A stretch of DNA of 64,000 nt from an uncultured Acidimicrobiia bacterium (GTDB lineage: Bacteria > Actinomycetota > Acidimicrobiia > Acidimicrobiales > AC-14). Position numbers and translations under genes: made by a program. Of this stretch, positions 6,892-20,800 are shown one piece after another. How positions within the stretch are numbered: position 1 is the first letter of the stretch; every line of letters starts with the position of its first letter. The notes beneath the pieces were generated by a model, which was not told the origin of the DNA, did no database searches, and saw only the letters and a program-made list of their open reading frames with translations. Location of the stretch: NCBI GenBank assembly GCA_963836205.1, contig CAWIIV010000022.1, positions 1-64,000 on the forward strand, given 5' to 3'.

Positions 6892-8640
6892 ATGAAGAGC
6901 GGGTTGAGGCCTTTGGCGGTGTCCTTCCTCCTCCTGGCGGCCGCGTGTACGAGTTCGGACACGCCCTCCACGTCGCCGCCCCCGACGTCGCCGGGTTCGA
7001 CGTCGGCCACCACCGGCCCGCCCCCGCCCTACACCGGCGGTCCGTGTCCCTACGACGCCATCGATCCGGCCAAGCCCGGCGTGGGTCTGCAGGACTTCCA
7101 GAATCCCCCGGACGAGCGGTTCACCGACGGGTCGAAGACCCTGACCGTGCGGTACTCGGACGAGAACACCATGCTCGGCGGCTGCGTGGTGACGCTCCGG
7201 TCGTACAACGGGAAGCTGGTCGGCCCCACTATCCGGGCCAAGCCGGGCGAGACCATCGACTTCCACCTCAAGAACGACCTGCCGCCAAACAACACCGAGC
7301 ACGACGTCCACCAGGAAGAGGCGGCCGCCCACCTGGTGATGACCCCGAACGCCTACAACACGACCAACGTCCACACCCACGGCCTGCACGTGTCGCCCAA
7401 CGGCAACAGCGACAACGTCCTGCTCGCGCTCGAGCCTGGCATCGATTTCCACTACGAGATCAAGCTGCCCCCCGACCACGCCCCGGGGACGTTCTGGTAC
7501 CACGCCCACGCCCACGGCTCCACGGCCATCCAGGTGGGCAGCGGCATGGCCGGCGCCCTCATCGTGGAGGACGACGAATCGAAGCTCCCCCCGCCGCTGC
7601 TGGAGGCGACCAAGCGGGAGAAGATCATGGTCTTCGAGTCGATCCTCTACGACACGAACGGGAAGATCGACAACATCGCCGCCTTCTTCCCCGACAGCCC
7701 GACCACCGCCGGCTTCTGCGCCCAGGGCCTCGACACGTGCACCTGGCAGAACTCGAAGCGGCGCACCACCGTCAACGGCCAGATCGTGCCCCGCATCCAC
7801 ATGCAGCCGGGCGAGGTGCAGCGCTGGCGGATGATCGACGCCACCTTCCGGGAGTCGCTGAACATCAGGCTGTCCGGCCACCCCCTCCACGAGATCGCCC
7901 TCGACGGGCTGTACACCGGCCAGGTCGACACGTGGGGCGAGGACCAGAGCGTCGCCCTCGAGTCGGGCTATCGGAGCGACGTGCTCGTACAGGCCAGCTC
8001 GACGCCGGGGACCTACCTGCTGACCGACGAGGGGACGTCGGCCGGGATCGCAGTGCGGGCCGTGGCGGAGGACGCCGTCACGCTGGCCGAGGTGGTCGTC
8101 GCGGGCGACCCTCTCCAGATGACCCTGCCGACCGATGCCCAGATGGAGCCGCTGGGCTATCGAGTCGACGTCGACCTGCGCAACACCGCAGTGGGCGTGC
8201 AAGAGGTGTCGTTCAAGATCGGGAGCGACCTGGCCGCCGAGAAGAACTACTTCCAGGTCAACGGCGAGTCGTTCGACGAGGAGAACATCCGCTACGTGCC
8301 GCTGAACGGCATCCAGACGTGGAAGCTCACCACGGTGGGCGACCCCCCGGGCGTACCCAGGGCAGGTGGTGGGATTCCGCCGGTGCCTCACGTCTTCCAC
8401 ATCCATGTCAACCCGTTCCAGTGGGCGCGGGACGACCCGGATGGAAACGAGGAGCTGGTGTGGAAGGACACGTTGCTCGTGCCCCCGGCCGCGGCTGACC
8501 TCTTCGTCTACACCGAATACCAGGACTTCACCGGGACGTTCGTCATGCACTGTCACATCCTCGACCACGAGGACCTGGGGATGATGGAGGTGGTCGAGGT
8601 CGTCGACCGGCTCCCGATCGACATGGAGCAGCCCGACTAG
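6892..8640 (+). CDS. Multicopper oxidase, lipoprotein
   Basis: Four Cu motifs HTHG, WYHAHAH, HVFHIH, HCHILDHEDLGMM; lipobox LAAAC; AAGGA RBS. Confidence 0.93.
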   Translation: MKSGLRPLAVSFLLLAAACTSSDTPSTSPPPTSPGSTSATTGPPPPYTGGPCPYDAIDPAKPGVGLQDFQNPPDERFTDGSKTLTVRYSDENTMLGGCVVTLRSYNGKLVGPTIRAKPGETIDFHLKNDLPPNNTEHDVHQEEAAAHLVMTPNAYNTTNVHTHGLHVSPNGNSDNVLLALEPGIDFHYEIKLPPDHAPGTFWYHAHAHGSTAIQVGSGMAGALIVEDDESKLPPPLLEATKREKIMVFESILYDTNGKIDNIAAFFPDSPTTAGFCAQGLDTCTWQNSKRRTTVNGQIVPRIHMQPGEVQRWRMIDATFRESLNIRLSGHPLHEIALDGLYTGQVDTWGEDQSVALESGYRSDVLVQASSTPGTYLLTDEGTSAGIAVRAVAEDAVTLAEVVVAGDPLQMTLPTDAQMEPLGYRVDVDLRNTAVGVQEVSFKIGSDLAAEKNYFQVNGESFDEENIRYVPLNGIQTWKLTTVGDPPGVPRAGGGIPPVPHVFHIHVNPFQWARDDPDGNEELVWKDTLLVPPAAADLFVYTEYQDFTGTFVMHCHILDHEDLGMMEVVEVVDRLPIDMEQPD

Positions 8641-10990: not shown

Positions 10991-13324
10991 CTAGCCCTGC
11001 CAGCGGGCGGCCACGGCCGCCTGCCCGATGCTCACCCCGCCGTCGTTGGGCGGCACTCGGGAGTGGACGAGCACCTCCACTCCCGATGCGGTGAGCTCTC
11101 GTTCCACGATCTCGGTCAGCCGGGCGTTCTGGAACACACCGCCGCTGAGGGCGACGGTTCCTACGCCCGCGTTCGCGGCCAGGTCGCGGGCCATCGCCGC
11201 CACCGACCGGCCCAGGGCGGCGTGGAAGGCGGCCGCCACCGCCGGCACGGTCGCCCCCCGGTCCCGGGCCGCCACCACGTGGGCCACGAGGGGTGACGGG
11301 TCGAGCACCGCGCTCCCGTCGTCGTCGGCAGTGATTGCGGCGTCCCACCCGTCGGCCACCGGGGTGTCCAGAGGCTCACCGGCGGCCGCCGCCTCCAGCT
11401 CGATGGCGGCCTGGGCCTCGTAGGTGACCGTGGGCCGGATGCCGAGGAGGGCGGCCACCCCGTCGAACAGGCGCCCGGCACTCGTCGTGCGCAGGCTGTC
11501 CTCCCGCTCGACAATCGCCAGGATCGACGGCCACCGCTCGTCGACCGACCGCCCGTAGCGCTCCGCCTCCTCCCGGCCGAGGGCGGTGCGGGCCCAGGCC
11601 AGGGCCATCCGCCACGGCTCCCGGATGGCCCGCACGCCGCCCGGCAGGGCCACCGCGGCCAGGTGCCCGACCCGCTCGTACGACTCCAGGTCGGCCACCA
11701 GGAACTCCCCGCCCCAGATGACCCCGTCGGTACCCATGCCCGTGCCGTCGAAGGCGATCCCCAGCACCCGATCGTCGCGGCGGTGCTCGGCCAGGCAGGA
11801 GGCGATGTGGGCGTGATGGTGTTGCACCCCGATCGCGGGCAGGTCGAGGTCGGCCGCGAACTTGGTCGACAGGTACTCCGGGTGGAGGTCGTGGGCCACC
11901 ACCTCGGGGACCACGCCGGTGAGGTGGCACAGGTGGTCGACGGCCTGCAGGAACGACTTGTAGGCGGCCAGGTGCTCGAGGTCGCCGATGTGGTGGCTGG
12001 CGATCAGGTTGGTGCCCTTGGCCACCGTGACCGTGTTCTTGAGCTCCGCCCCCACGGCCAGGACCTGGTGGTTGGTGGGCATGATCAGCGGGATCGGCGC
12101 CGGTGCGTAGCCCCGGGACCGGCGCAGCATCTGCACCGGCTTGCCTGCGGGACGAGCCCGCACCACCGAGTCGTCGCAGCGGATGTGGATGGGCCGGTCG
12201 TGGGTGAGGATGGCGTCGACCATCGGGCCCAGGCGGGCGAGGGCGTCGGTGTCGTCGTGGGCGATGGGCTCGTCGGACAGGTTGCCGCTGGTCATCACCA
12301 GGGGGCCGCCGAAGCGGTGGAGCAGGAGAGTGTGGAGCGGGGTGTACGGCAGCATGAGGCCGAGTTCGGGCAGGCGGGGGGCGATGCGGGGGGCGAGGCC
12401 GGAGTCGTCCCGGCGGGGGACGAGCACGATCGGGCGCCGCACCGACCCCATCTCCGCCTCCGCCGCCTCGCTCAGGTGGGCCACCCGGCGGGCCTCGTCG
12501 AGGTCGCGCACCATCACCGCGAACGGCTTGTCGTCGCGGGCCTTGCGCCGGCGCAGCTCGGCGACGGCGTCCGGGTTCCCGGCGTCGACGGCCAGGTGGT
12601 AACCGCCCAGACCCTTGATGGCCAGGACCTTTCCCGCCGCCAGCAGGGCAACCGTCTGGTCGAGGGCGTCGTCGGCCTTGGCCACCAGGTCGCCCTCGGC
12701 CGAGAGCAGGGAGAGCTGGGGCCCGCAGACAGGGCAGCACACCGGCTCGGCGTGGAAGCGGCGGTTGGCGGGGTCGGTGTACTCGGCCCGGCAGTCGTCG
12801 CACAGGACGAAGCCGGCCATGGTGGTCGACGGCCGGTCGTAAGGGATCGACGTGATGATCGTGTACCGGGGCCCGCAGTTGGTGCAGTTGATGAACGGGT
12901 AGCCGAAGCGGCGATCGGCGGGGTCGAGCATCTCCCGGGTGCAGTCGGCGCACGTGGCCACGTCGGGGCTGACCGCCACCGCCGGCGCCCCTTCCACCCG
13001 GCTGTCGACGATGGAGAACGTGGCCGCACCGAGGGGTTCGTCCACCGACTCGACGGTGAGCGACTCGATGTGGGCCAGGGGCGGCAACTCGGCCACCAGC
13101 CGGGCGGCGAACAGTTCGAGGGCGGCCGCCGGCGCCTCGACGTCGATGATCACGCCCCGGCTGTCGTTGGCCACCGAGCCTGTCAGCCCCAGCTCCACTG
13201 CGATCCGGTAGACGAACGGGCGGAAGCCGACGCCCTGGACCGTGCCCGTGACGCGCAACTGGTGACGTTCTCGGGGGTCCTGGCCCCCAGAAACGTCACC
13301 AGTTGCGTCGTGCGGGTTCAGCAA
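10991..13324 (-). CDS. hypF: Carbamoyltransferase HypF
   Basis: VTGTVQGVGFRPF acylphosphatase domain, zinc fingers (CADC, CTNCGPR, CDDC, CPVCGP), KGLGGYHL, QHHHAH, PPNDGG. TTG start overlapping hypE stop is inferred. Confidence 0.95.
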   Translation of the reverse strand: MLNPHDATGDVSGGQDPRERHQLRVTGTVQGVGFRPFVYRIAVELGLTGSVANDSRGVIIDVEAPAAALELFAARLVAELPPLAHIESLTVESVDEPLGAATFSIVDSRVEGAPAVAVSPDVATCADCTREMLDPADRRFGYPFINCTNCGPRYTIITSIPYDRPSTTMAGFVLCDDCRAEYTDPANRRFHAEPVCCPVCGPQLSLLSAEGDLVAKADDALDQTVALLAAGKVLAIKGLGGYHLAVDAGNPDAVAELRRRKARDDKPFAVMVRDLDEARRVAHLSEAAEAEMGSVRRPIVLVPRRDDSGLAPRIAPRLPELGLMLPYTPLHTLLLHRFGGPLVMTSGNLSDEPIAHDDTDALARLGPMVDAILTHDRPIHIRCDDSVVRARPAGKPVQMLRRSRGYAPAPIPLIMPTNHQVLAVGAELKNTVTVAKGTNLIASHHIGDLEHLAAYKSFLQAVDHLCHLTGVVPEVVAHDLHPEYLSTKFAADLDLPAIGVQHHHAHIASCLAEHRRDDRVLGIAFDGTGMGTDGVIWGGEFLVADLESYERVGHLAAVALPGGVRAIREPWRMALAWARTALGREEAERYGRSVDERWPSILAIVEREDSLRTTSAGRLFDGVAALLGIRPTVTYEAQAAIELEAAAAGEPLDTPVADGWDAAITADDDGSAVLDPSPLVAHVVAARDRGATVPAVAAAFHAALGRSVAAMARDLAANAGVGTVALSGGVFQNARLTEIVERELTASGVEVLVHSRVPPNDGGVSIGQAAVAARWQG

Positions 13325-14421
13325 ATGCGCGGCAGCGGGTCCCCGACGAGCATGTCGACGATGCGGGTGCCGCCGAAGCCGGTCTGGAGCACGACGATGC
13401 CCGGGGGCTCGGCCGTGACCTCGCCGATGATGGCGGCGTCGACCCCGTACTTGTGCGCCCGCAGGGCGGCCAGGGCGGCGTCGGCCTCCTCGGGGGGCAC
13501 GACCGCGACCAGCTTGCCCTCGTTGGCGACGTACATCGGGTCGATGCCGAGGATCTCGCACGCCCCGTTGACCACGTTGCGGACCGGGATGGCCTGCTCC
13601 ATGATCCGGACGCCGACCTCGGCCTCCTTGGCCATCTCGTTGAGCACGGTGGCGACGCCGCCCCGGGTGGGGTCACGCATGAACCGGACTCCCGGCGCCG
13701 CCTCGAGCAGCTGCTCGACCATCTCGTTGAGGGGGGCGGTGTCGGACGGGATGTCGGCCTCGAGGTTGAGCTCGCCCCGGGCGATGAGGACGGCCACGCC
13801 GTGGTCGCCGATCTTGCCCGACACGATGATCTTGTCGCCCGGCTTCACCGACTTGGAGTCGAGGTGGATGGAGGCGGGCACCACGCCCACGCCGGCGGTG
13901 GTGATGTAGCAGCCGTCGGCCGCCCCCCGGTTGACCACCTTGGTGTCGCCGGTGACGATCTGGACCCCGGCCTCGGCCGCGGCCTCGGCCATGTCGGCCA
14001 CGATCTCCCGCAGCTCGATGATCGAGAAGCCGTCCTCCAGCACGAAGGCGGCCGAGATCCACTGGGGCCGGGCGCCCATCATCGACAGGTCGTTGACCGT
14101 GCCGCAGATGGCCAGGTGGCCGATGGACCCGCCCGGGAAGCGGCGGGGCTTGACCACGAACGAGTCGGTGGAGAAGGCGATGCGCTCGCCCGAGGGCAGC
14201 TCCATGACGGCCCCGTCGGACATGCCTTCGAGGGTCTTGTTGCGGAACGCCTCCAGGAACACGGCGTCGATGAGCGCCGCCGACGCCTTGCCGCCCGCGC
14301 CGTGGGCCGAGTTGATGAACTCGTCCTTCAGCTTGGGCCGGCGCTTGCGGAACTCCTCGATGCGCTGCATGACCTGCTCTTCGCGGTCGCCTCCGCCGTG
14401 CTCCCCCTCAACGACGGTCAT
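13318..14421 (-). CDS. hypE: Hydrogenase maturation protein HypE
   Basis: AHGAGG, STDSFVV, GDTKVV, MRDPTRGG, C-terminal LPRIC; ATGA overlap with hypD. Confidence 0.96.
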   Translation of the reverse strand: MTVVEGEHGGGDREEQVMQRIEEFRKRRPKLKDEFINSAHGAGGKASAALIDAVFLEAFRNKTLEGMSDGAVMELPSGERIAFSTDSFVVKPRRFPGGSIGHLAICGTVNDLSMMGARPQWISAAFVLEDGFSIIELREIVADMAEAAAEAGVQIVTGDTKVVNRGAADGCYITTAGVGVVPASIHLDSKSVKPGDKIIVSGKIGDHGVAVLIARGELNLEADIPSDTAPLNEMVEQLLEAAPGVRFMRDPTRGGVATVLNEMAKEAEVGVRIMEQAIPVRNVVNGACEILGIDPMYVANEGKLVAVVPPEEADAALAALRAHKYGVDAAIIGEVTAEPPGIVVLQTGFGGTRIVDMLVGDPLPRIC

Positions 14422-15563
14422 GCGGGGGCGTTCGCTCCGACCTTCACCGGGATCTTGGTGAAGCGGCCGTAGTTGTAATAGGCGGCGCAGGCTCCCTCGG
14501 ACGACACCATGCAGGTGCCGATGGGCGTCTCCGGCGTGCAGGCGGTGCCGAACACCTTGCACTCCCAGGGCTTGATGACGCCCTTGAGGACCTCGCCGCA
14601 CTGGCAGGCCTTGGGGTCGGCCACCCGGATGCCGGGCACCGCGAAGCGCAGCTCGGCGTCGAAGTCGGCGTAGTCGGCGTTGAGCTTGAGCGCCGACTGG
14701 GAGATGAAGCCCAGGCCCCGCCACTCGAAGTGGGGGCGCAGCTCGAACACTTCCTGGAGGATGGCCAGGGCCCGGGGGTTGCCCTCGTCGGACACGGCCC
14801 GGGTGTACTGGTTCTCGACCTCGCAGCGGCCCTCGTTGATCTGCTTGAGCAGCATCTCGATGGACTGGAGGATGTCGAGGGGCTCGAAGCCGGCGGTGAC
14901 CAGGGGCAGCCCGTACTGGGCGGGCACGAACCGGTAGGGCCGGTTGCCGATCACGGTGGAGACGTGGCCTGGGCCGAGGAACCCGTGCAGGCGCAGGTCG
15001 GGGGACTCGAGGATGGCCTTGAGGGGCGGGACGATCGTGACGTGGTTGCAGAAGACAGAGAAGTTCTTGACGTTGCGCTGGCGGGCCTTGAGGACCGTGA
15101 CCGCGGTGGAGGGGGCGGTGGTCTCGAACCCGACGGCGAAGAAGACGACTTCCTTGTCGGGGTTGGCCTCGGCGATGCGCAGGGCGTCCAGCGGGGAGTA
15201 GACCATCCGCACGTCGGCGCCCTGGGCCTTGGCCTCGAGCAGGTTCTCCTTGCCGCCGGGCACCCGCATCATGTCGCCGAAGCTGGTGAAGATCGTGTTC
15301 GGCGTCTTGGCCACGGCGACGGCGTCGTCGACCCGGCCCATGGGGATGACGCACACCGGGCAGCCGGGACCGTGCACCAGCTCGACGGTGGGGGGCAGGA
15401 CGTTCTCGATGCCGTGCTTGTAGATGGTGTGGGTGTGGCCGCCGCACACCTCCATGAACTTGAACGGTCCGCCGTTGGGCGCACCGTCGGCCGCCCGCTC
15501 CGTGATCTTCTTGATGGCGGCCTTGGCCGCGGCCGGGTCGCGGAACTCGTCGACGTACTTCAC
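14418..15563 (-). CDS. hypD: Hydrogenase maturation protein HypD
   Basis: MEVCGGHTH, GPGCPVC, GFETT, PGHVS, CMVSSEGACAA. Confidence 0.97.
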   Translation of the reverse strand: MKYVDEFRDPAAAKAAIKKITERAADGAPNGGPFKFMEVCGGHTHTIYKHGIENVLPPTVELVHGPGCPVCVIPMGRVDDAVAVAKTPNTIFTSFGDMMRVPGGKENLLEAKAQGADVRMVYSPLDALRIAEANPDKEVVFFAVGFETTAPSTAVTVLKARQRNVKNFSVFCNHVTIVPPLKAILESPDLRLHGFLGPGHVSTVIGNRPYRFVPAQYGLPLVTAGFEPLDILQSIEMLLKQINEGRCEVENQYTRAVSDEGNPRALAILQEVFELRPHFEWRGLGFISQSALKLNADYADFDAELRFAVPGIRVADPKACQCGEVLKGVIKPWECKVFGTACTPETPIGTCMVSSEGACAAYYNYGRFTKIPVKVGANAPA

Positions 15564-15838
15564 AGCTGGGCCTCCTGCTTGAAATCTGTCATTTCCTGCT
15601 CGTAGACGTCGCCCAGGCCCCGCATGTACTGGAGGGTCTCGGCCGCCTCCTGCTCGCCGATCTTGCTCATGGCGAACCCGACGTGGATCAGGACCCAGTC
15701 GCCGACCTCGACGGTGCCGCCTTCGCCGGAGACCAGGCGGATGTTGATCTCACGGCGTACGCCGTCGACGTCGACGATGGCGCGATGCTCCGCCAGGTCG
15801 ACGATCTCGACCAGCTGGCCGGGGATGCCTAGGCACAT
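15560..15838 (-). CDS. hypC: HypC/HybG chaperone
   Basis: MCLGIPGQ start; VGDWVLIHVGFA. Confidence 0.96.
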   Translation of the reverse strand: MCLGIPGQLVEIVDLAEHRAIVDVDGVRREINIRLVSGEGGTVEVGDWVLIHVGFAMSKIGEQEAAETLQYMRGLGDVYEQEMTDFKQEAQL

Positions 15839-16128: not shown

Positions 16129-16545
16129 TCAGGGGATGATCTCCACGCCGTCGTCGCGGGCGGCCGGGGCCTGGTCGCCGTCGTCGACGATGCGGTCGTA
16201 GCGGCTGAGATAGGCGGAGAGGTAACGGCGACCCTCGCGCAGGGCGCCGGCCCAGGCATGGAGCCACTCGACGCCCTCTTCGGTGAGGCGGTAGCTGCGG
16301 CGGGCGGGCCCGGCGGTGGAGTGCTCCCACCACGAGGCGACCAGTCCGTCCTGCTCCATCACCCGCAGGGCCCGGTAGAGGCCGCCGGGGTCGACGTTGC
16401 GCAGGCCCAGCTGGGCGATCTGCTCGAGGAGGTCGTAGCCGTGGGCCGGGGTCTCGGCGATGAGCAGCAGCAGGCTGGCTCGGAGGTAGTTGCGGGGGAG
16501 CCCGCCCTGGGGCTCCTCGGTGGAGGTGCGCGTCGGCTGCTTCAT
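16129..16545 (-). CDS. PadR family transcriptional regulator (PhaQ-like)
   Basis: LLLLIAETPAHGYDL, GGLYRALRVMEQDGLV, GPARRSYRLTEEG. Confidence 0.92.
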   Translation of the reverse strand: MKQPTRTSTEEPQGGLPRNYLRASLLLLIAETPAHGYDLLEQIAQLGLRNVDPGGLYRALRVMEQDGLVASWWEHSTAGPARRSYRLTEEGVEWLHAWAGALREGRRYLSAYLSRYDRIVDDGDQAPAARDDGVEIIP

Positions 16546-16783
16546 ACGGCCCGTCCCGAGGCGCCAGGTCCCGAGGCGGGGGCTCCGGAAGTCCACGACT
16601 GCGCCCTGCCGGCACGGCACCGACGCCGGAGCGACGGCACCCGGCAGGGCAGTGGATCGACCATTTCGGACAACCAGGCCTCCAAAGTCATACGGCTGAA
16701 CTCCTACAGGCAACCGCACAGGGGCTTGCGCCCACACCCCTCATGGCCGACGGATGGCGGATACCGCTCCTGTCGCAGCCAGA

Positions 16784-16802
16784 TAGGTGCATTGTACACC
16801 TA
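16784..16802. promoter_or_regulatory. Inverted repeat in padR / coiled-coil operon intergenic region
   Basis: TAGGTGCA-TTG-TACACCTA, 8-bp arms with one mismatch, in a locally AT-richer patch. Confidence 0.4.
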
Positions 16803-17100
16803 GCCGGACACCAAAAACGGGCCGACTTGGTCGGAGGCCCGTCCCGAGGGGGTCGGGCGGCCAGGCGGCGGCCACTGGGGGCTCGACGGGGCCGAGCCGC
16901 CGACGTCGACCAGGGGCGGGCCACTGACCGTGGCGAAATTGAACGCCCAGAGCGCCAAAGAGGGTGTTGCACCGCGGGCGGCCGTGCCATACAGTCCCCG
17001 TCACATCCGTGGTATCCGTACGGGGTCTTTCGACACACGCCGCAGCTCTTTTCGTCGCAGCCTGCCGCTGGTCCCCGGCCCAACGACTCAGGGGGAAAGC

Positions 17101-17643
17101 ATGACCAAGCGGTGGAGGTCTGCCGCCGACGAACGGGGACAGGCCACGTTCTCGCTCATCATCGTTCTTGTGGTGGTGGCGATTGCAGTGGTTCTTCTCC
17201 AGCGGACGGCGTCGACCGCAGAGAGCATCAATGACAAGGCGGGCACTATCTCCAGTTCGGCCACTGGCATCAACGAGAGCACGAAGGCGGTGCTGAAGCT
17301 CGACACGACCAACAACCTGGCCGGCTCGATCCTCGCCACCGCTCAGCCGCTCGAAGGCGCGCTGAACGAGGTAATTCGCCTGGCTCAGTCGATCGACGGC
17401 CTCGCGACCTCGATCAACGACTCGGCCAGCACCATCAACGGTACGGCCAACGGCATCAACGGCACGGCAACGACGATCCTGAACACCGCCCGTCACATCA
17501 ACGACGGCGTCGCCCAGATCAACACCAACCTCGACACGACGTTGGCCGTTGCCGCTTCCATCAAGGCTGACACCGGCGACATCCGTGGCCGGGCCGACCG
17601 TACGACCCAACTTGCCGCCGCCATCGACGCGGCCCTCCCGTAA
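17101..17643 (+). CDS. Membrane-anchored heptad-repeat (coiled-coil) protein 1
   Basis: GGGGGA RBS; DERGQA then hydrophobic helix; about 20 heptads with Ile/Val/Leu every 7 residues. Confidence 0.88.
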   Translation: MTKRWRSAADERGQATFSLIIVLVVVAIAVVLLQRTASTAESINDKAGTISSSATGINESTKAVLKLDTTNNLAGSILATAQPLEGALNEVIRLAQSIDGLATSINDSASTINGTANGINGTATTILNTARHINDGVAQINTNLDTTLAVAASIKADTGDIRGRADRTTQLAAAIDAALP

Positions 17644-17659
17644 GGAAAGGAGCGAACTC

Positions 17660-18361
17660 ATGACTTCAACCATGGCAGCGCGGCGCTCGCGTAGTGGCCC
17701 CGCACCCGCTCCTCGTCCGGCAAACGACCAGACCACGTTCCTGTCCCGGTGGCTCAAGGTGTGGGTGATCCTGCTCACCGTCGTCACCCTGGTGGTCGTG
17801 GTGTACCTGGTGATCATCACCAACTCCCTGGCCAACATCAACGGCAACCTGGCCACGGCCGACCGGGCCGTCAGTGGCGCCGGTGGCGACGTCCGCACCC
17901 TGCCCAACCAGGTAGACCGGATCAACGGCGCCCTCGACGGCATCGACAAGGCCCTCAAGCCCATCCCCGCCCAGGCCGGTGAGATCGTCACCGTCCTGAC
18001 CTCGGTCAACGACAAGCTCACCTCGGTCGACGCCTCGCTGAAGGACACGTCTGCGGTCCTCAGCACGGTGCTCAGCTCGGTCAACAGCGTCAGCACCACC
18101 CTTATCGACGCTGACGACCCGGCCGACAGGCTTGGCGTCCAGAACATCCACCACCGGGTAGCTGCGATCAACGGCGCCAACTCGCCGGCCAGGGTCGCGG
18201 GCGGTGGCGGTCCGGGTCCGTTCGCTACGGGTGGCAACCTGAGCGCAGCCGAGACTGACGCACGAGCGATCGTGGGCAGCCTTGACTCGATCAACACCCA
18301 CCTGACGGGCGTCTGCCAGTCGAGCCTGGTGCTCGGCACCGTCCTCGGGTGCTCTGCATGA
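17660..18361 (+). CDS. Membrane-anchored heptad-repeat protein 2
   Basis: AAGGAG RBS; single TM helix; heptads; C-terminal Cys pair (GVCQ...GCSA). Confidence 0.88.
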   Translation: MTSTMAARRSRSGPAPAPRPANDQTTFLSRWLKVWVILLTVVTLVVVVYLVIITNSLANINGNLATADRAVSGAGGDVRTLPNQVDRINGALDGIDKALKPIPAQAGEIVTVLTSVNDKLTSVDASLKDTSAVLSTVLSSVNSVSTTLIDADDPADRLGVQNIHHRVAAINGANSPARVAGGGGPGPFATGGNLSAAETDARAIVGSLDSINTHLTGVCQSSLVLGTVLGCSA

Positions 18362-18987
18362 GCGTCAGCGGCGACAGCCGCCTGAGAGGGCAGCGCGGCA
18401 TCGTCGGCCTCAACTTGGCCCTCGTCATCGCCTTCGCTCTGTTCGCCGTGATCGAACTGTCCAGGGTCACCCTGGCCGCGAAGCAGATCGACGACAGGGT
18501 GGAGCAGATCACCACCGACGTCGGCCCCGGTTCCAACGTGTCGCAACTCGACCAGACGGCGAAGCTTGACGACGTCGCCCAGAAGGCCGAGGACATCCTC
18601 AAGGCTGCGGCGCCGCTTTCGGGCCAGGCCGGGGTCATCCTCGACACGGTCAAGAACATCGACGCCACGGCATCGAGCATCCTCACCAACGCGGAGTCGA
18701 TCAACGGCTCGGTGAACAGCATCAACTCGACGGCCAGCGCCCTGCTGCCCGTCGTGCAGGCCATCCACGGCAGCGGTGGGAAGGGTGGTGGTGGTGTTGA
18801 AGCCATCAACATCCGGGCCTCCGAAGCCTTTGGTCCGGTCGCGGGCATCCAGGGTGACCTGGCCCGTGTCATCTCTGTCGCCGGCCCCGCCGGTGCCGGA
18901 GGGCATGTCGCGGGCACGATCCATGCGTCCGTGAACGGCATCAACTGTGCAATCGCGTTGATTCCCAACGTGGGTTGCGGCGGCTAG
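18358..18987 (+). CDS. Membrane-anchored heptad-repeat protein 3
   Basis: ATGA overlap with gene 2; RGQRG then hydrophobic helix; heptads; C-terminal Cys pair (INCA...GCGG). Confidence 0.88.
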   Translation: MSVSGDSRLRGQRGIVGLNLALVIAFALFAVIELSRVTLAAKQIDDRVEQITTDVGPGSNVSQLDQTAKLDDVAQKAEDILKAAAPLSGQAGVILDTVKNIDATASSILTNAESINGSVNSINSTASALLPVVQAIHGSGGKGGGGVEAINIRASEAFGPVAGIQGDLARVISVAGPAGAGGHVAGTIHASVNGINCAIALIPNVGCGG

Positions 18988-19026
18988 CCGTCGTCCCAAA
19001 CCCCGTCAGGGGACAGCAAGTCCACA

Positions 19027-19058
19027 GCGAAGGCCCGGGGGAAACCCCGGGCCTTCGC
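19027..19058 (+). terminator. GC-rich hairpin after the three-gene operon
   Basis: Perfect 14-bp stem GCGAAGGCCCGGGG-GAAA-CCCCGGGCCTTCGC; no U-tract. Confidence 0.75.
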
Positions 19059-19457
19059 CGTTGGCGGCGTCGATCGGCCAATCGCTCGCCGAACGGCAGG
19101 TCGCTGGCCGCGGCAGAGGTCGGGGGTCGCGGGCGACGAGGTGATGACCCGGCCGCGCCCAGGTGCGGCGGTCGGCTTGTGGGCAGGCCTCCGGCGTGTC
19201 AGGAAGGGCAGTGTCGGAAGGCGCCGTCGCCGGACCGGTTGTGCGCCGAGGAGGGGCTCACTGGTCCCGGCCGGGTTGCCGATGTGCGCGTGGTTACCCC
19301 TGATGTACCACTGGAGCTGGTCACCCGCGACGTGCCTTCGGTCGTGGGCGGCTCACCCGCCACGGCTCCACGCCATCGCACGCCCTGGCGCGTCGGCGTC
19401 GGCGCCGGAAACCTGGTCCCACGACGGCCCAGGCGACCAGGCCTGGGAGCGGCCGGA

Positions 19458-20601
19458 TCAGCCGACGGTGGTTGGGGTGGCCTCGGGGACGGCGGTGGTC
19501 TCGGGGGCGGGGGCCAGGTCGGGCTCGGTCTCGAAGCTCGTCGCCATCTGGTCGAAGATGCTGCTCAGGCGGGCGAAACCCTCCTCGGGGAGCGCCTGGA
19601 ACACGAGGGTGTACATGTTCCGGCCTCGGAAGAGGAAGTAGTGGGCGTGGGCCCCGGTGGCGCCCGTCTCCGCGCTCGGTGAACGTGTACAGGTAGTAGT
19701 AGCCCGGCATCCCGTTCAGCAGGATCGGCTGCACCTTGAGGATCACTGCCGATTTGACGGTGCCGACGATGCCGTCGGTGACCGCTTTGAGGTTGACCAG
19801 GTTCTCGGGGGTGGTCGGAACCTCGGTGCGCGTGAACTTGCGGGCGCTGACGAGGTCGTACTCGTTCTCTCGGGTCTGCACGACGAGCTCACCGTCGTCG
19901 GCCTTCCCCGCCTGCCAGTCGGTCGGGTACTTCATGGTGAAGCCCATCTCGGGACTGGTGTAGGAACCGAAGGCCGACTCGGGCAGGGTGGGTCCGGGGG
20001 CCTCGGGGTCGACCGTGGTGGTGGTCTGGGCGCCCTGGCCGGAGGTGACCGTCGCCGCCGGCCGGAGGACGAAGGCCCAGACGATGAGGCCGATCACGAC
20101 CACGGTGAGGACGGAGAGGATGACGACCATCGTGTTCTGGGACGGGGCAGGGCGCCCACGGCCGGGACGTCGGGGGCCGGCCGTGACGGGGGACGGGGCC
20201 GCGGCCTCGGCGGGCGCCGGTCGCCCGGGTCGGGCGGAGGACCGGCCGCGGGCAGGTCTGGGCTCGGTCGCCTGTCGGGAGGTGGTGCGGGACGCGGACG
20301 GGCGGGCGGCGGCCTCACGTTCAGCGGCGGCCCCTCGGGCGGCTGCCGCGCCGCGGGTGGCGCCGGCGGCCCCTCCTGCACCCCCGCGGGTGCCGGCCTC
20401 GCACGTGGCGCGGGCCGCGGCCCCCGGGGCACCGGCGCGGCGAGCCCCGCGGGCCGCGCCGGCGGACCCCCTGGCACCGGTGCGGGCAGCAGCCCCTCGG
20501 GCGGCGGAGCGGCGGGGGCGGCCGGACGAGGCCGGTCGGGGCCGGGACGGCCGCGGGCCGGGGGCGTCGGCCGGGGTCTGGTCGTGCGGGCGGTCGCCCA
20601 T
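19458..20601 (-). CDS. Pro-rich single-pass membrane protein with PsbP-like extracellular domain; frameshifted
   Basis: AAGGAG RBS; TM VVILSVLTVVVIGLIVWAFVL; YTSPEMGFTMKYPTDW; C-terminus (HYFLFRGRNMYTLVFQALP...FDQMATSF) in another frame after about 19670. Confidence 0.65.
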
Positions 20602-20707
20602 GGCGGTGGTCTCCTTCGAACGGCGACGGTGGGCAGTCGAGCCAGCCCGTGCCACCGGGAACCGGTCTCTCGGCGGTGGCGGGTGCGCCAGTGCAACCTT
20701 ATTGCGG

Positions 20708-20800
20708 CCCTGGGTGTTTGTGACCCTCGGTGTTTGTGACCCTGGGTGTTTGTGACCCTGGGTATTGTGACCCTGGGTATTGTGACCCTGGGTATTGTGA
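20708..20800. repeat. Tandem repeat, three 16-bp plus three 15-bp units
   Basis: CCCTGGGTGTTTGTGA x3 (one substitution) then CCCTGGGTATTGTGA x3, ending 7 bp before the HAD start codon. Confidence 0.93.

Follow-up and report, generated by a model that had tools for sequence, protein, structure and literature searches.

We describe an operon of three genes (genes 1–3, positions 17101–18987, forward strand) in DNA of an uncultured Acidimicrobiia bacterium (assembly GCA_963836205.1, contig CAWIIV010000022.1, positions 1–64,000; this whole stretch of 64,000 nucleotides (nt) is referred to as the window). Each gene encodes one N-terminal membrane helix followed by isoleucine-based heptads. We consider it slightly better than an even bet (probability roughly 0.55) that the three products are elongated proteins of the HylTM kind, originating from a group 1m-like [NiFe]-hydrogenase cluster and belonging to a five-protein module that holds a cytosolic hydrogenase at the membrane. 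HylTM1-5 are short proteins, five in number, that are predicted to span the membrane and are encoded in group 1l [NiFe]-hydrogenase clusters (10.1101/2020.08.06.239558; PMC13554262); they have been presented on the basis of AlphaFold3 models as a tube-like membrane scaffold (Nat Commun 2026, PMC13554262). Gene linkage and homology suggest that the five proteins would most likely bundle their membrane helices into one module, tethering the cytosolic enzyme.

The three genes and the five-protein set

Gene 1 (17101–17643) encodes 180 amino acids (aa) with a basic N-terminus, one membrane helix and one long heptad helix. Gene 2 (17660–18361) encodes 233 aa, with an Arg-rich N-terminus, a strongly conserved membrane helix, segmented helices and a C219/C231 pair. 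Gene 3 (18358–18987), a paralogue of gene 1, encodes 209 aa with a Gly-rich break and a C-terminal Cys pair. Genes 1 and 3 are assigned to subtype A and gene 2 to subtype B. The ATG start codons at 17101, 17660 and 18358 fit the N-termini of 39, 38 and 37 aligned sequences, respectively (window copy plus homologues). A ribosome-binding site (RBS), GGGGGAAAG, is located at 17091–17099, 2 nt 5' of the first ATG. Genes 1 and 2 are separated by 16 nt, which include GGAAAGGAG 5' of the second ATG, and the stop of gene 2 overlaps the start of gene 3 as ATGA (18358–18361). The sequence and the aligned N-termini thus bear out the operon anatomy given in an earlier note on this DNA (16-nt gap, ATGA overlap, RBS on genes 1 and 2, perfect 14-bp hairpin). 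GC content at third codon positions is 0.81–0.82 in the stop-to-stop frames of genes 1–3, the window as a whole having ~70% GC; the source genome comprises 4.05 Mb in 25 contigs and is 88.6% complete. Selenocysteine or an alternative code inside genes 1–3 was considered and dropped, the frames being open under table 11, as was a longer gene 1 from GTG 16930, where one-base indels occur among congeners.

In all three families the best 19-residue hydropathy window lies near the N-terminus (mean 2.5–3.1). At lag 7, genes 1, 2 and 3 have 9, 5 and 7 Ile-Ile pairs, compared to 0–1 at lags 1–6, and for each gene 0 of 2000 shuffles gave a lag-7 count as high. The heptad pattern is far beyond chance, in agreement with the membrane helix and Ile heptads described before. 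The earlier note also took the three genes to be paralogues of each other. Sequence comparison supports this for genes 1 and 3, which are clear paralogues (E 1.5e-10, 33% identity); gene 2 resembles gene 1 only weakly (E 1e-4 to 1e-3 in four relatives) and is a more distant relative. The motifs KLD..A..IL..A.PL.G and (E/Q)RG, previously pointed out in genes 1 and 3, are conserved alignment columns, and the membrane-helix columns are invariant. At least two Cys are found in the last 45 residues of 102/120 gene-1, 119/120 gene-2 and 119/120 gene-3 homologues, hence the Cys pairs reported at the ends of genes 2 and 3 are widely conserved; the C-terminal pair has been lost from the window copy of gene 1.

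The AlphaFold2 monomer of gene 1 is a single helix spanning residues 13–178 (mean predicted local distance difference test score, pLDDT, 83). That of gene 2 contains helices at 23–75, 78–99, 101–152, 160–171 and 192–220 (mean pLDDT 65). Complex prediction of genes 1, 2 and 3 with alignments gave scores of 0.28 and 0.18 compared to a mark of 0.32; run without controls, these were used neither way. A database search returned 369, 462 and 398 homologues of genes 1, 2 and 3 at E ≤ 1e-3, and matches in the ESM Atlas were to Actinomycetota clusters only. Among curated families, Pfam and NCBIfam gave only sub-threshold, composition-type matches for the three genes.

The triplet is not a system on its own. 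More distant members of the same family encode, on the same strand, a CooC/MinD-type ATPase, two small proteins termed sm1 (83 aa) and sm2 (90–94 aa), and then genes 1–3; several of the contigs with this arrangement start inside a [NiFe]-hydrogenase large-subunit gene. Both sm1 and sm2 are single-helix proteins of ~85 aa, and they are remote paralogues of genes 1/3 and of gene 2, respectively. Across related Acidimicrobiia the triplet forms the last three members of a five-gene set (sm1, sm2, genes 1–3), and represents three-fifths of this conserved set.

To survey the loci, the gene 1 alignment was scanned against one genome per species, yielding 57 loci, all in metagenome-assembled genomes (MAGs): Actinomycetota-labelled MAGs plus one short contig labelled Gemmatimonadaceae. 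All 37 species-level loci that extend at least 1.9 kb beyond the gene 1 start have genes 2 and 3 behind it, so that conservation as a triplet holds in every adequately long locus. A hydrogenase subunit, hyp or CooC-type gene is present in 32/57 loci, and one of these or sm1/sm2 in 40/57. When only well-flanked loci are counted (at least 5 kb upstream and 3 kb onward), 16/21 have a hydrogenase-related gene, rising to 19/21 with sm1/sm2 added, with neither in 2/21. Five gene orders were observed: hydL...CooC-sm1-sm2-g1g2g3 (17 loci, one with PadR replacing CooC), sm1-sm2-g1g2g3 (11 loci), PadR-hypCDEF|g1g2g3 (6 loci), hypF-hypE-g1g2g3-sm1'-sm2' (4 loci, on one strand) and g1g2g3...CooC...hypCDEF (2 loci). 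In G187 (L063) the triplet lies directly upstream of a small-subunit gene. Because the association recurs in several different gene orders, and not in this window alone, we take the link to H2 metabolism suggested earlier to be real. The tallies given below for close relatives, for matches to the 1m-like large subunit and for the phylum sample include genomes flagged as unpublished (G008, G009, G015, G017, G021, G023, G058, G088, G159, G187, G278), four of which provide layout examples (G008, L032; G015, contig 157, L051; G017, L036; G187, L063). Every layout class and conclusion is also found in unflagged genomes (L027, L028, L031, L035, L050, L057-L059, L067-L121).

Two variations in copy number were seen. 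The whole triplet occurs twice in tandem (g1-g2-g3-g1-g2-g3) in L092 and L095, from two species-level genomes, and in G344 a further copy of the triplet is located at a distance of ~25 kb from another 1m-like large-subunit gene.

The homology with HylTM proteins is traced through four of the genomes of the phylum sample detected by the gene 1 profile, all of another family (G152, G310, G245, G284), which have the order CooC, hydS, an interval of ~2 kb, and hydL. The products of hydL share 52–56% identity with the 1m-like large subunit. Where the contig extends far enough (three of the four genomes), hydL is followed by the protease, NifU-like gene and hypFCDE. In three of these genomes the hydS-hydL interval holds four to five open reading frames (ORFs) each, coding for single-helix proteins of ~100 aa, with five types overall. 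A broad gene 1 profile detects three of the five interposed proteins (G152) at 43–51 bits, one of which also scores 41 bits to sm1. The fourth (from G310) scores 25.3 bits to gene 2 and 24.5 bits to sm2, and the fifth is weak to both; the gene 3 profile gives at most 11 bits on the interposed proteins. Judged by these similarities, both layouts comprise three A-type proteins (genes 1, 3 and sm1 in the present set) and two B-type proteins (gene 2 and sm2).

The idea of a co-assembling stalk or tube put forward in the earlier note has a counterpart in print, PMC13554262 making the same proposal for the related HylTM1-5 from AlphaFold3 models. As in genes 1–3, a single N-terminal membrane helix is followed by helical segments in HylTM1-5, and as with sm1/sm2 plus genes 1–3, five members make up a set in a high-affinity hydrogenase cluster. 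The differences are considerable. At ~90–105 aa, the HylTM proteins are about half the size of genes 1–3 (180–233 aa, ~2x); the latter are further set apart by a basic N-terminal extension, C-terminal Cys pairs and a low-charge, Asn/Ser/Thr-rich composition, features that all point to the opposite topology. The HylTM genes lie between the small and large subunit genes in the group 1l layout, whereas genes 1–3 come after the subunit genes in relatives and have their own promoter-like block. Furthermore, HylTM1-5 are found within the group 1l cluster, while the window has the three genes with zero subunit genes nearby. A prior description of the long form of genes 1–3 was not encountered in the available portions of the literature on HylTM, group 1l transmembrane proteins and group 1m.

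HucM of the Mycobacterium smegmatis Huc enzyme is reportedly a stalk of helices by which a high-affinity hydrogenase of the cytosol is anchored to the membrane, and is said to be one protein forming a homo-oligomer. It is a possible functional analogue of the triplet, without sequence similarity: no Huc stalk chain is present among the solved-structure matches at E ≤ 10 (gene 1, two profiles). A further difference is that HucM is a single protein, compared to five different proteins here.

Class of the associated hydrogenase

Group 1m clusters of Actinobacteriota are described as having subunit genes next to each other, HybD, an FeS-assembly protein, a CooC-type ATPase, a TPR protein and two single-helix proteins of 82–92 aa (Ray et al., ISME J 2022, PMC9561532). 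The cluster that ends in the five-gene set in relatives fits this description, the two single-helix proteins being matched by sm1 (83 aa) and sm2 (90–94 aa), found directly upstream of genes 1–3. Three longer genes are unmentioned in the passages on these clusters (PMC9561532), although the gene map of the same paper may show them. In the supplement, a stretch of the reference group 1m sequence is, by eye, closer to the large subunit of G013, encoded beside the five-gene set, than the group 1l sequence beside it (PMC9561532). The best solved relative of the G013 large subunit is the group 1h structure 5AA5 (442 bits). By comparison, contig 6 of the genome to which the window belongs (G000) encodes a large subunit that scores 1036 bits to 5AA5, and the two large subunits share 42% identity.

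Searches of the window's genome, seven congeners and G016 revealed no 1m-like large subunit, the best matches having 42–46% identity, and no CooC-type gene was detected in the window's genome. Relatives of sm1/sm2 occur in this genome solely on contig 6, as the last genes of a group 1h operon that codes for the small subunit, large subunit, a NifU-like protein, DUF6084, a 544-aa protein, a protease-like protein, a HypC-like protein, a small membrane protein, sm1' and sm2'. Three searched genomes with the order hypF-hypE-g1g2g3-sm1'-sm2' likewise reach only 43–46% to the 1m-like large subunit, and in two of them a 1h-like large-subunit gene is located ~24–26 kb away on the same contig. Genomes in which 1h-like enzymes alone were detected therefore also carry the five-protein set, suggesting that its occurrence extends beyond groups 1l and 1m.

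Beside sm1'/sm2' on contig 6, the opposite strand has another two small ORFs with a single helix each (L041, 8034–8327 and 8328–8597, +). One of these is weakly sm2-like (12 bits), and the two may represent an additional pair of this type. In the same genome, large-subunit matches of equal score were observed on three contigs of ~26–29 kb (C3, 2385–3956; C4, 12649–14220; C5, 5949–7520), 66% identical to the contig-6 group 1h large subunit. These are either true repeats or assembly duplicates.

Topology and competing explanations

When 120 homologues of each gene are compared, Lys+Arg residues are more numerous before the membrane helix than behind it in 78 (gene 1), 112 (gene 2) and 56 (gene 3), with ties in 34, 6 and 48 and the reverse in 8, 2 and 16. 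The short proteins (20 examined) invariably have 0 Lys/Arg before the helix and 1–4 after, a pattern that fits cytoplasmic helices and the published model. The soluble parts of genes 1–3 contain 8–11% Glu+Lys+Arg and 22–26% Asn+Ser+Thr, compared to 21% and 12%, respectively, in 13 short proteins. These features suggest that the long rods of genes 1–3 probably face outward. The preference of the earlier note for an extracytoplasmic location agrees with the three sequence indicators (Lys/Arg bias, Cys pairs and composition). In the five-protein module that we favour, the short proteins would aim charged helices into the cytoplasm, while genes 1–3 would probably aim long, low-charge, Cys-capped heptad rods outward.

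Several points weigh against this reading. A twin-arginine signal is absent from the small subunits of the hydrogenases in these clusters; the enzyme is therefore cytosolic, and out of direct reach of an outward rod. Outward rods conflict with the simplest picture of a stalk to the enzyme, and the HylTM1-5 model places the helices of the short proteins in the cytoplasm (PMC13554262). Our conclusion that sm1, sm2 and genes 1–3 are the likely counterpart of HylTM1-5 was reached by way of the unnamed interposed proteins of Actinomycetota, not the named ones of Hymenobacter roseosalivarius. Similarly, the enzyme of the relatives appears 1m-like by cluster content and by a match, made by eye and not from a tree, to one reference. 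The phyletic pattern is consistent with a hydrogenase link: the gene 1 profile at E ≤ 1e-5 detects 17/301 genomes of the phylum, and 15/17 of these carriers have the large-subunit family PF00374, compared to 156/301 overall. Among 41 close relatives, PF00374 is present in 18/18 with gene 1 (in G021 by a match below the family cut-off only), and gene 1 is found in 0/9 without a PF00374 match. This pattern is nonetheless weak on its own, because the base rate of PF00374 is high (52% of the phylum sample) and the genomes are related. One genome that is 97% complete (G339) has a strong triplet and no PF00374 match. At two well-flanked loci, L086 and L103, no hydrogenase-related gene is encountered up to 10 kb away; the distance from L086 to a 1m-like large-subunit gene is ~25 kb, and for L103 the sole large-subunit gene detected in its genome is ~870 kb distant. 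In G197 and G249, both of one family, the nearest large-subunit gene is 24–25 kb off.

A bolder form of the favoured reading would accommodate the outward rods by making genes 1–3 topologically inverted, elongated HylTM paralogues. Combined with the two short subunits that face the cytoplasm, the module would then be two-sided, with a cytoplasmic docking arm and a ~20-nm disulfide-capped heterotrimeric envelope rod, and might represent the missing group 1h tether in these lineages. We regard this version as speculative.

The outward indicators are also compatible with an envelope structure independent of hydrogenase: an extracytoplasmic, disulfide-capped coiled-coil rod (a surface appendage, wall spacer or stress protein) that travels with hydrogenase islands. 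The triplet has its own conserved promoter-like block, and adjoins in many loci a conserved convergent neighbour, which encodes a Pro-rich protein anchored in the membrane whose C-terminal domain is PsbP-like (E 2e-6 in one relative and 5e-5 in another). Some triplets are without a nearby hydrogenase gene and one genome is without any, and the triplet survives in the window's genus after loss of the adjacent hydrogenase genes. Such a structure remains an unlikely explanation given that the triplet is found beside hydrogenase, hyp, CooC or sm1/sm2 genes in five gene orders, that it is homologous to proteins wedged between hydrogenase subunit genes, and that a hydrogenase is encoded in 15/17 carrier genomes.

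A sensor or regulatory module, in which the coiled coils relay a membrane or redox signal to the hydrogenase genes via PadR in the manner of a methyl-accepting chemotaxis protein (MCP) or an anti-sigma factor, would account for the recurring PadR adjacency. JGI labels many of the homologues 'methyl-accepting chemotaxis protein', and the top solved-structure profile match is an MCP cytoplasmic domain (2CH7, E 3.8e-7). However, the solved-structure searches (gene 1 and two profiles) gave similarly weak matches to MCP cytoplasmic domains, trimeric adhesin stalks and designed coiled-coil barrels; since adhesin stalks and designed coiled coils match about equally, the likeness to 2CH7 reflects generic heptad composition. 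The automatic names 'methyl-accepting chemotaxis protein', 'YoxC' and 'FtsL' can likewise be attributed to weak matches of the generic membrane-helix and heptad type. DUF948/YoxC and MCP domains share with genes 1–3 an N-terminal membrane helix followed by a heptad-rich helix, and yet the three genes score far below both family cut-offs: 17.7, 10.2 and 12.1 bits compared to 37.2 for DUF948/YoxC (PF06103), and 15.7 bits for gene 3 compared to 34.6 for MCPsignal (PF00015), which genes 1 and 2 do not match. The helical part only of gene 2 reaches 16.3 bits with MCE/TIGR00996 (cut-off 140.5). As the proteins are furthermore without an output domain, with a cytoplasmic part of 12–35 residues, a sensory role seems improbable.

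It is scarcely credible that genes 1–3 are Tad/Flp-type pseudopilins, in which a prepilin peptidase would cut the (E/Q)RG leader and the helices polymerise to a fibre: a conserved (E/D)xGQ or RG motif does precede the helix in genes 1 and 3, and one A24 prepilin peptidase is encoded on another contig of the genome, but the motif is absent from gene 2, position +5 is without Glu (Ser in gene 1), the all-helical proteins greatly exceed pilins in length, a Pfam search gave no match to TadE, Flp or Tad at E ≤ 1, and no tad genes are present among the scanned neighbours in the window or in relatives. The likeness to Tad/Flp leaders raised in the earlier note thus found no support in either the Pfam search or the window neighbours scanned.

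Regulatory signals, gene neighbourhood and significance

In the window, the triplet diverges from a PadR-family regulator (16129–16737, reverse strand; PF03551, E 7e-18), beyond which lie the [NiFe]-hydrogenase maturation genes hypF-hypE-hypD-hypC (10991–15838, limits approximate, reverse strand), identified by Pfam (HypF_C_2 7e-75, AIRS 7e-24, HypD 1e-157, HupF_HypC 2e-26). No hydrogenase subunit genes are found near the triplet in the window. The order PadR-hypCDEF beside the triplet is kept in the six congeners compared and in G016.

An operator-like palindrome, TAGGTGCATTGTACACCTA, is located beside the PadR start (16784–16802, no strand assigned) and is invariant in 7/7 genus-level genomes. 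The window contains this one match only, against a chance expectation of 0. G020 has a related palindrome, TAGGTGTAGAGTACACCTA, between PadR and the hydrogenase small-subunit gene (L050, 12120–12138), making the pattern TAGGTG-N7-CACCTA common to the PadR side of the window and the front of the G020 small-subunit gene. We infer that the palindrome by PadR is a putative operator. On the triplet side, a promoter-like element (TGTTGC(AC), 17 nt, TACAGT; 16965–16995, forward strand) is kept in 8 genomes of 7 genera. The promoter-like block (TGTTGC, 17 nt, TAnAGT), a CCGTGG..ACGG block and the RBS are all retained in the eight genomes, whether gene 1 follows sm2 or PadR. The element is the presumed promoter of the triplet; a sigma-70 consensus scan called no promoter at this position. 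It is followed by a conserved leader (16996–17100, forward strand) that contains the block CCGTGGTATCCGTACGG and the RBS GGGGGAAAG, and which is nearly invariant in 7 genus-level genomes despite synonymous divergence (dS) of 0.25–0.46 in the genes. One-base indels exclude a coding role for the leader, and Rfam gave no family for it at E ≤ 1. At the other end, a perfect 14-bp hairpin with a GAAA loop lies 3' of gene 3 (19027–19058, forward strand); the full arms (19024–19040 and 19045–19061) are 94% complementary, the inner 14 bp being perfect. It is a likely terminator, missing from the terminator scan because it is without a T-tract.

The genome of the relative G020 shows the arrangement most fully. 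Contig C29 holds sm1''-sm2'', hypFEDC, PadR, a second CooC-type gene, PadR, and the small and large subunit genes, and stops at the end of the large-subunit gene. Contig C6 opens with the last residues of a large-subunit gene, followed by the protease, NifU-like, TPR and a 438-aa protein, and continues with the CooC-type ATPase, sm1, sm2, genes 1–3, the convergent PsbP-like membrane protein and an HAD hydrolase. The window PadR is 86% identical to its G020 orthologue over residues 75–184 (L050), the G020 copy being divergently upstream of the small-subunit gene.

We propose that the ancestral cluster consisted of adjacent 1m-like small and large subunit genes, the protease, NifU-like, TPR and CooC-type nickel ATPase genes, sm1, sm2 and genes 1–3, with genes 1–3 under their own promoter and PadR plus hypCDEF divergently upstream. 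In the window's genus the stretch from the small-subunit gene to sm2 would have been lost, bringing PadR-hypCDEF directly beside genes 1–3, while a second sm1/sm2 pair would remain at the end of the group 1h operon elsewhere in the genome. This deletion scenario is put forward because the palindrome occurs on the PadR side in both the window and G020, and because the promoter-like block is the same after sm2 or PadR.

If such a loss occurred, the triplet could be a decaying, functionless remnant of the 1m-like cluster. The 1m-like subunit genes, the CooC-type gene and adjacent sm1/sm2 were indeed not found in the genus, and the neighbouring PsbP-like gene appears frameshifted in the window. 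We consider decay highly improbable. The three frames are open in the window and six congeners, with the exception of G003 gene 2, aligned to residue 169 only, and the leader is almost invariant. The ratio of nonsynonymous to synonymous substitution rates (dN/dS), determined against genus-level orthologues, is 0.17–0.22 for gene 1, 0.23–0.40 for gene 2 and 0.18–0.41 for gene 3 (0.17–0.41 overall), similar to the neighbouring HAD gene (0.21–0.27). Genes 1–3 thus appear, from codon comparison, to persist under purifying selection beside PadR-hypCDEF in the genus. In addition, contigs from RNA libraries of three soil studies, 90–99% identical to the window, lie on all three genes and across both junctions. 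These are weak support for expression of the triplet, as the contigs derive from relatives and DNA carry-over is possible. The RNA-library contigs do not cover 16500–16969 or the region past 19037, save for a trace in one run, which is not evidence for transcript ends; one contig begins at 17015, next to adapter letters, and is at most a weak hint of a 5' end.

Further observations concern the neighbouring genes. In the PsbP-like gene of the window (19321–20655, reverse strand) the match shifts from frame -2 to -3 at ~19670–19676, with one open frame in four congeners; the change is either a frameshift or an assembly error. The region ~20730–20800, upstream of the HAD hydrolase gene, yields CDPGY three times and TLGIV three times in two frames of the ORF translations, which indicates a short intergenic tandem DNA repeat. 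For hypD (14421–15563), dS among congeners is 0.10–0.19, compared to 0.18–0.68 for genes 1–3, PadR and HAD; recent exchange, homogenisation or stronger codon constraint on the hyp block are possible reasons.

An in-frame TGA was noted in 10 genes encoding the CooC-type P-loop ATPase of these clusters (L028, 7106–7864, TGA at 7415–7417; L027, L031, L032, L035, L057, L058, L059, L062 and L066). The TGA forms the first position of an x-C motif (AG-TGA-TCG or AG-TGA-LC), where Cys is found in three paralogues or orthologues, and SelA is present in 5/5 genomes checked. Hairpins follow the TGA, yet are no better than those of shuffles (z -1.0 to +0.9). The ATPase is a candidate selenocysteine (U-x-C) nickel-insertion protein; among the matches listed in a search for literature on CooC and selenocysteine, none was obviously on such a protein.

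In soils, the oxidation of atmospheric H2 by hydrogenases of groups 1h, 1l and 1m is a process of major importance. To our knowledge, the manner in which these cytosolic enzymes are held at the membrane and transfer electrons to the respiratory chain has been solved for Huc only. The small membrane proteins of group 1l are the current tether candidates, known from gene maps and models, and both the link to H2 and the scaffold idea are already in print for the short relatives. The new elements here are that three of the five proteins have a long form that probably faces outward, that 1m-type clusters hold a set of five members, and that this set persists with group-1h-like hydrogenases only. 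Acidimicrobiia clusters of the group 1m type carry five such proteins, not two, and in the window's genus, where the enzymes detected were all group-1h-like, the set persists at two separate loci. If the link to group 1h is true, the set would provide a handle on the membrane tether of these hydrogenases.

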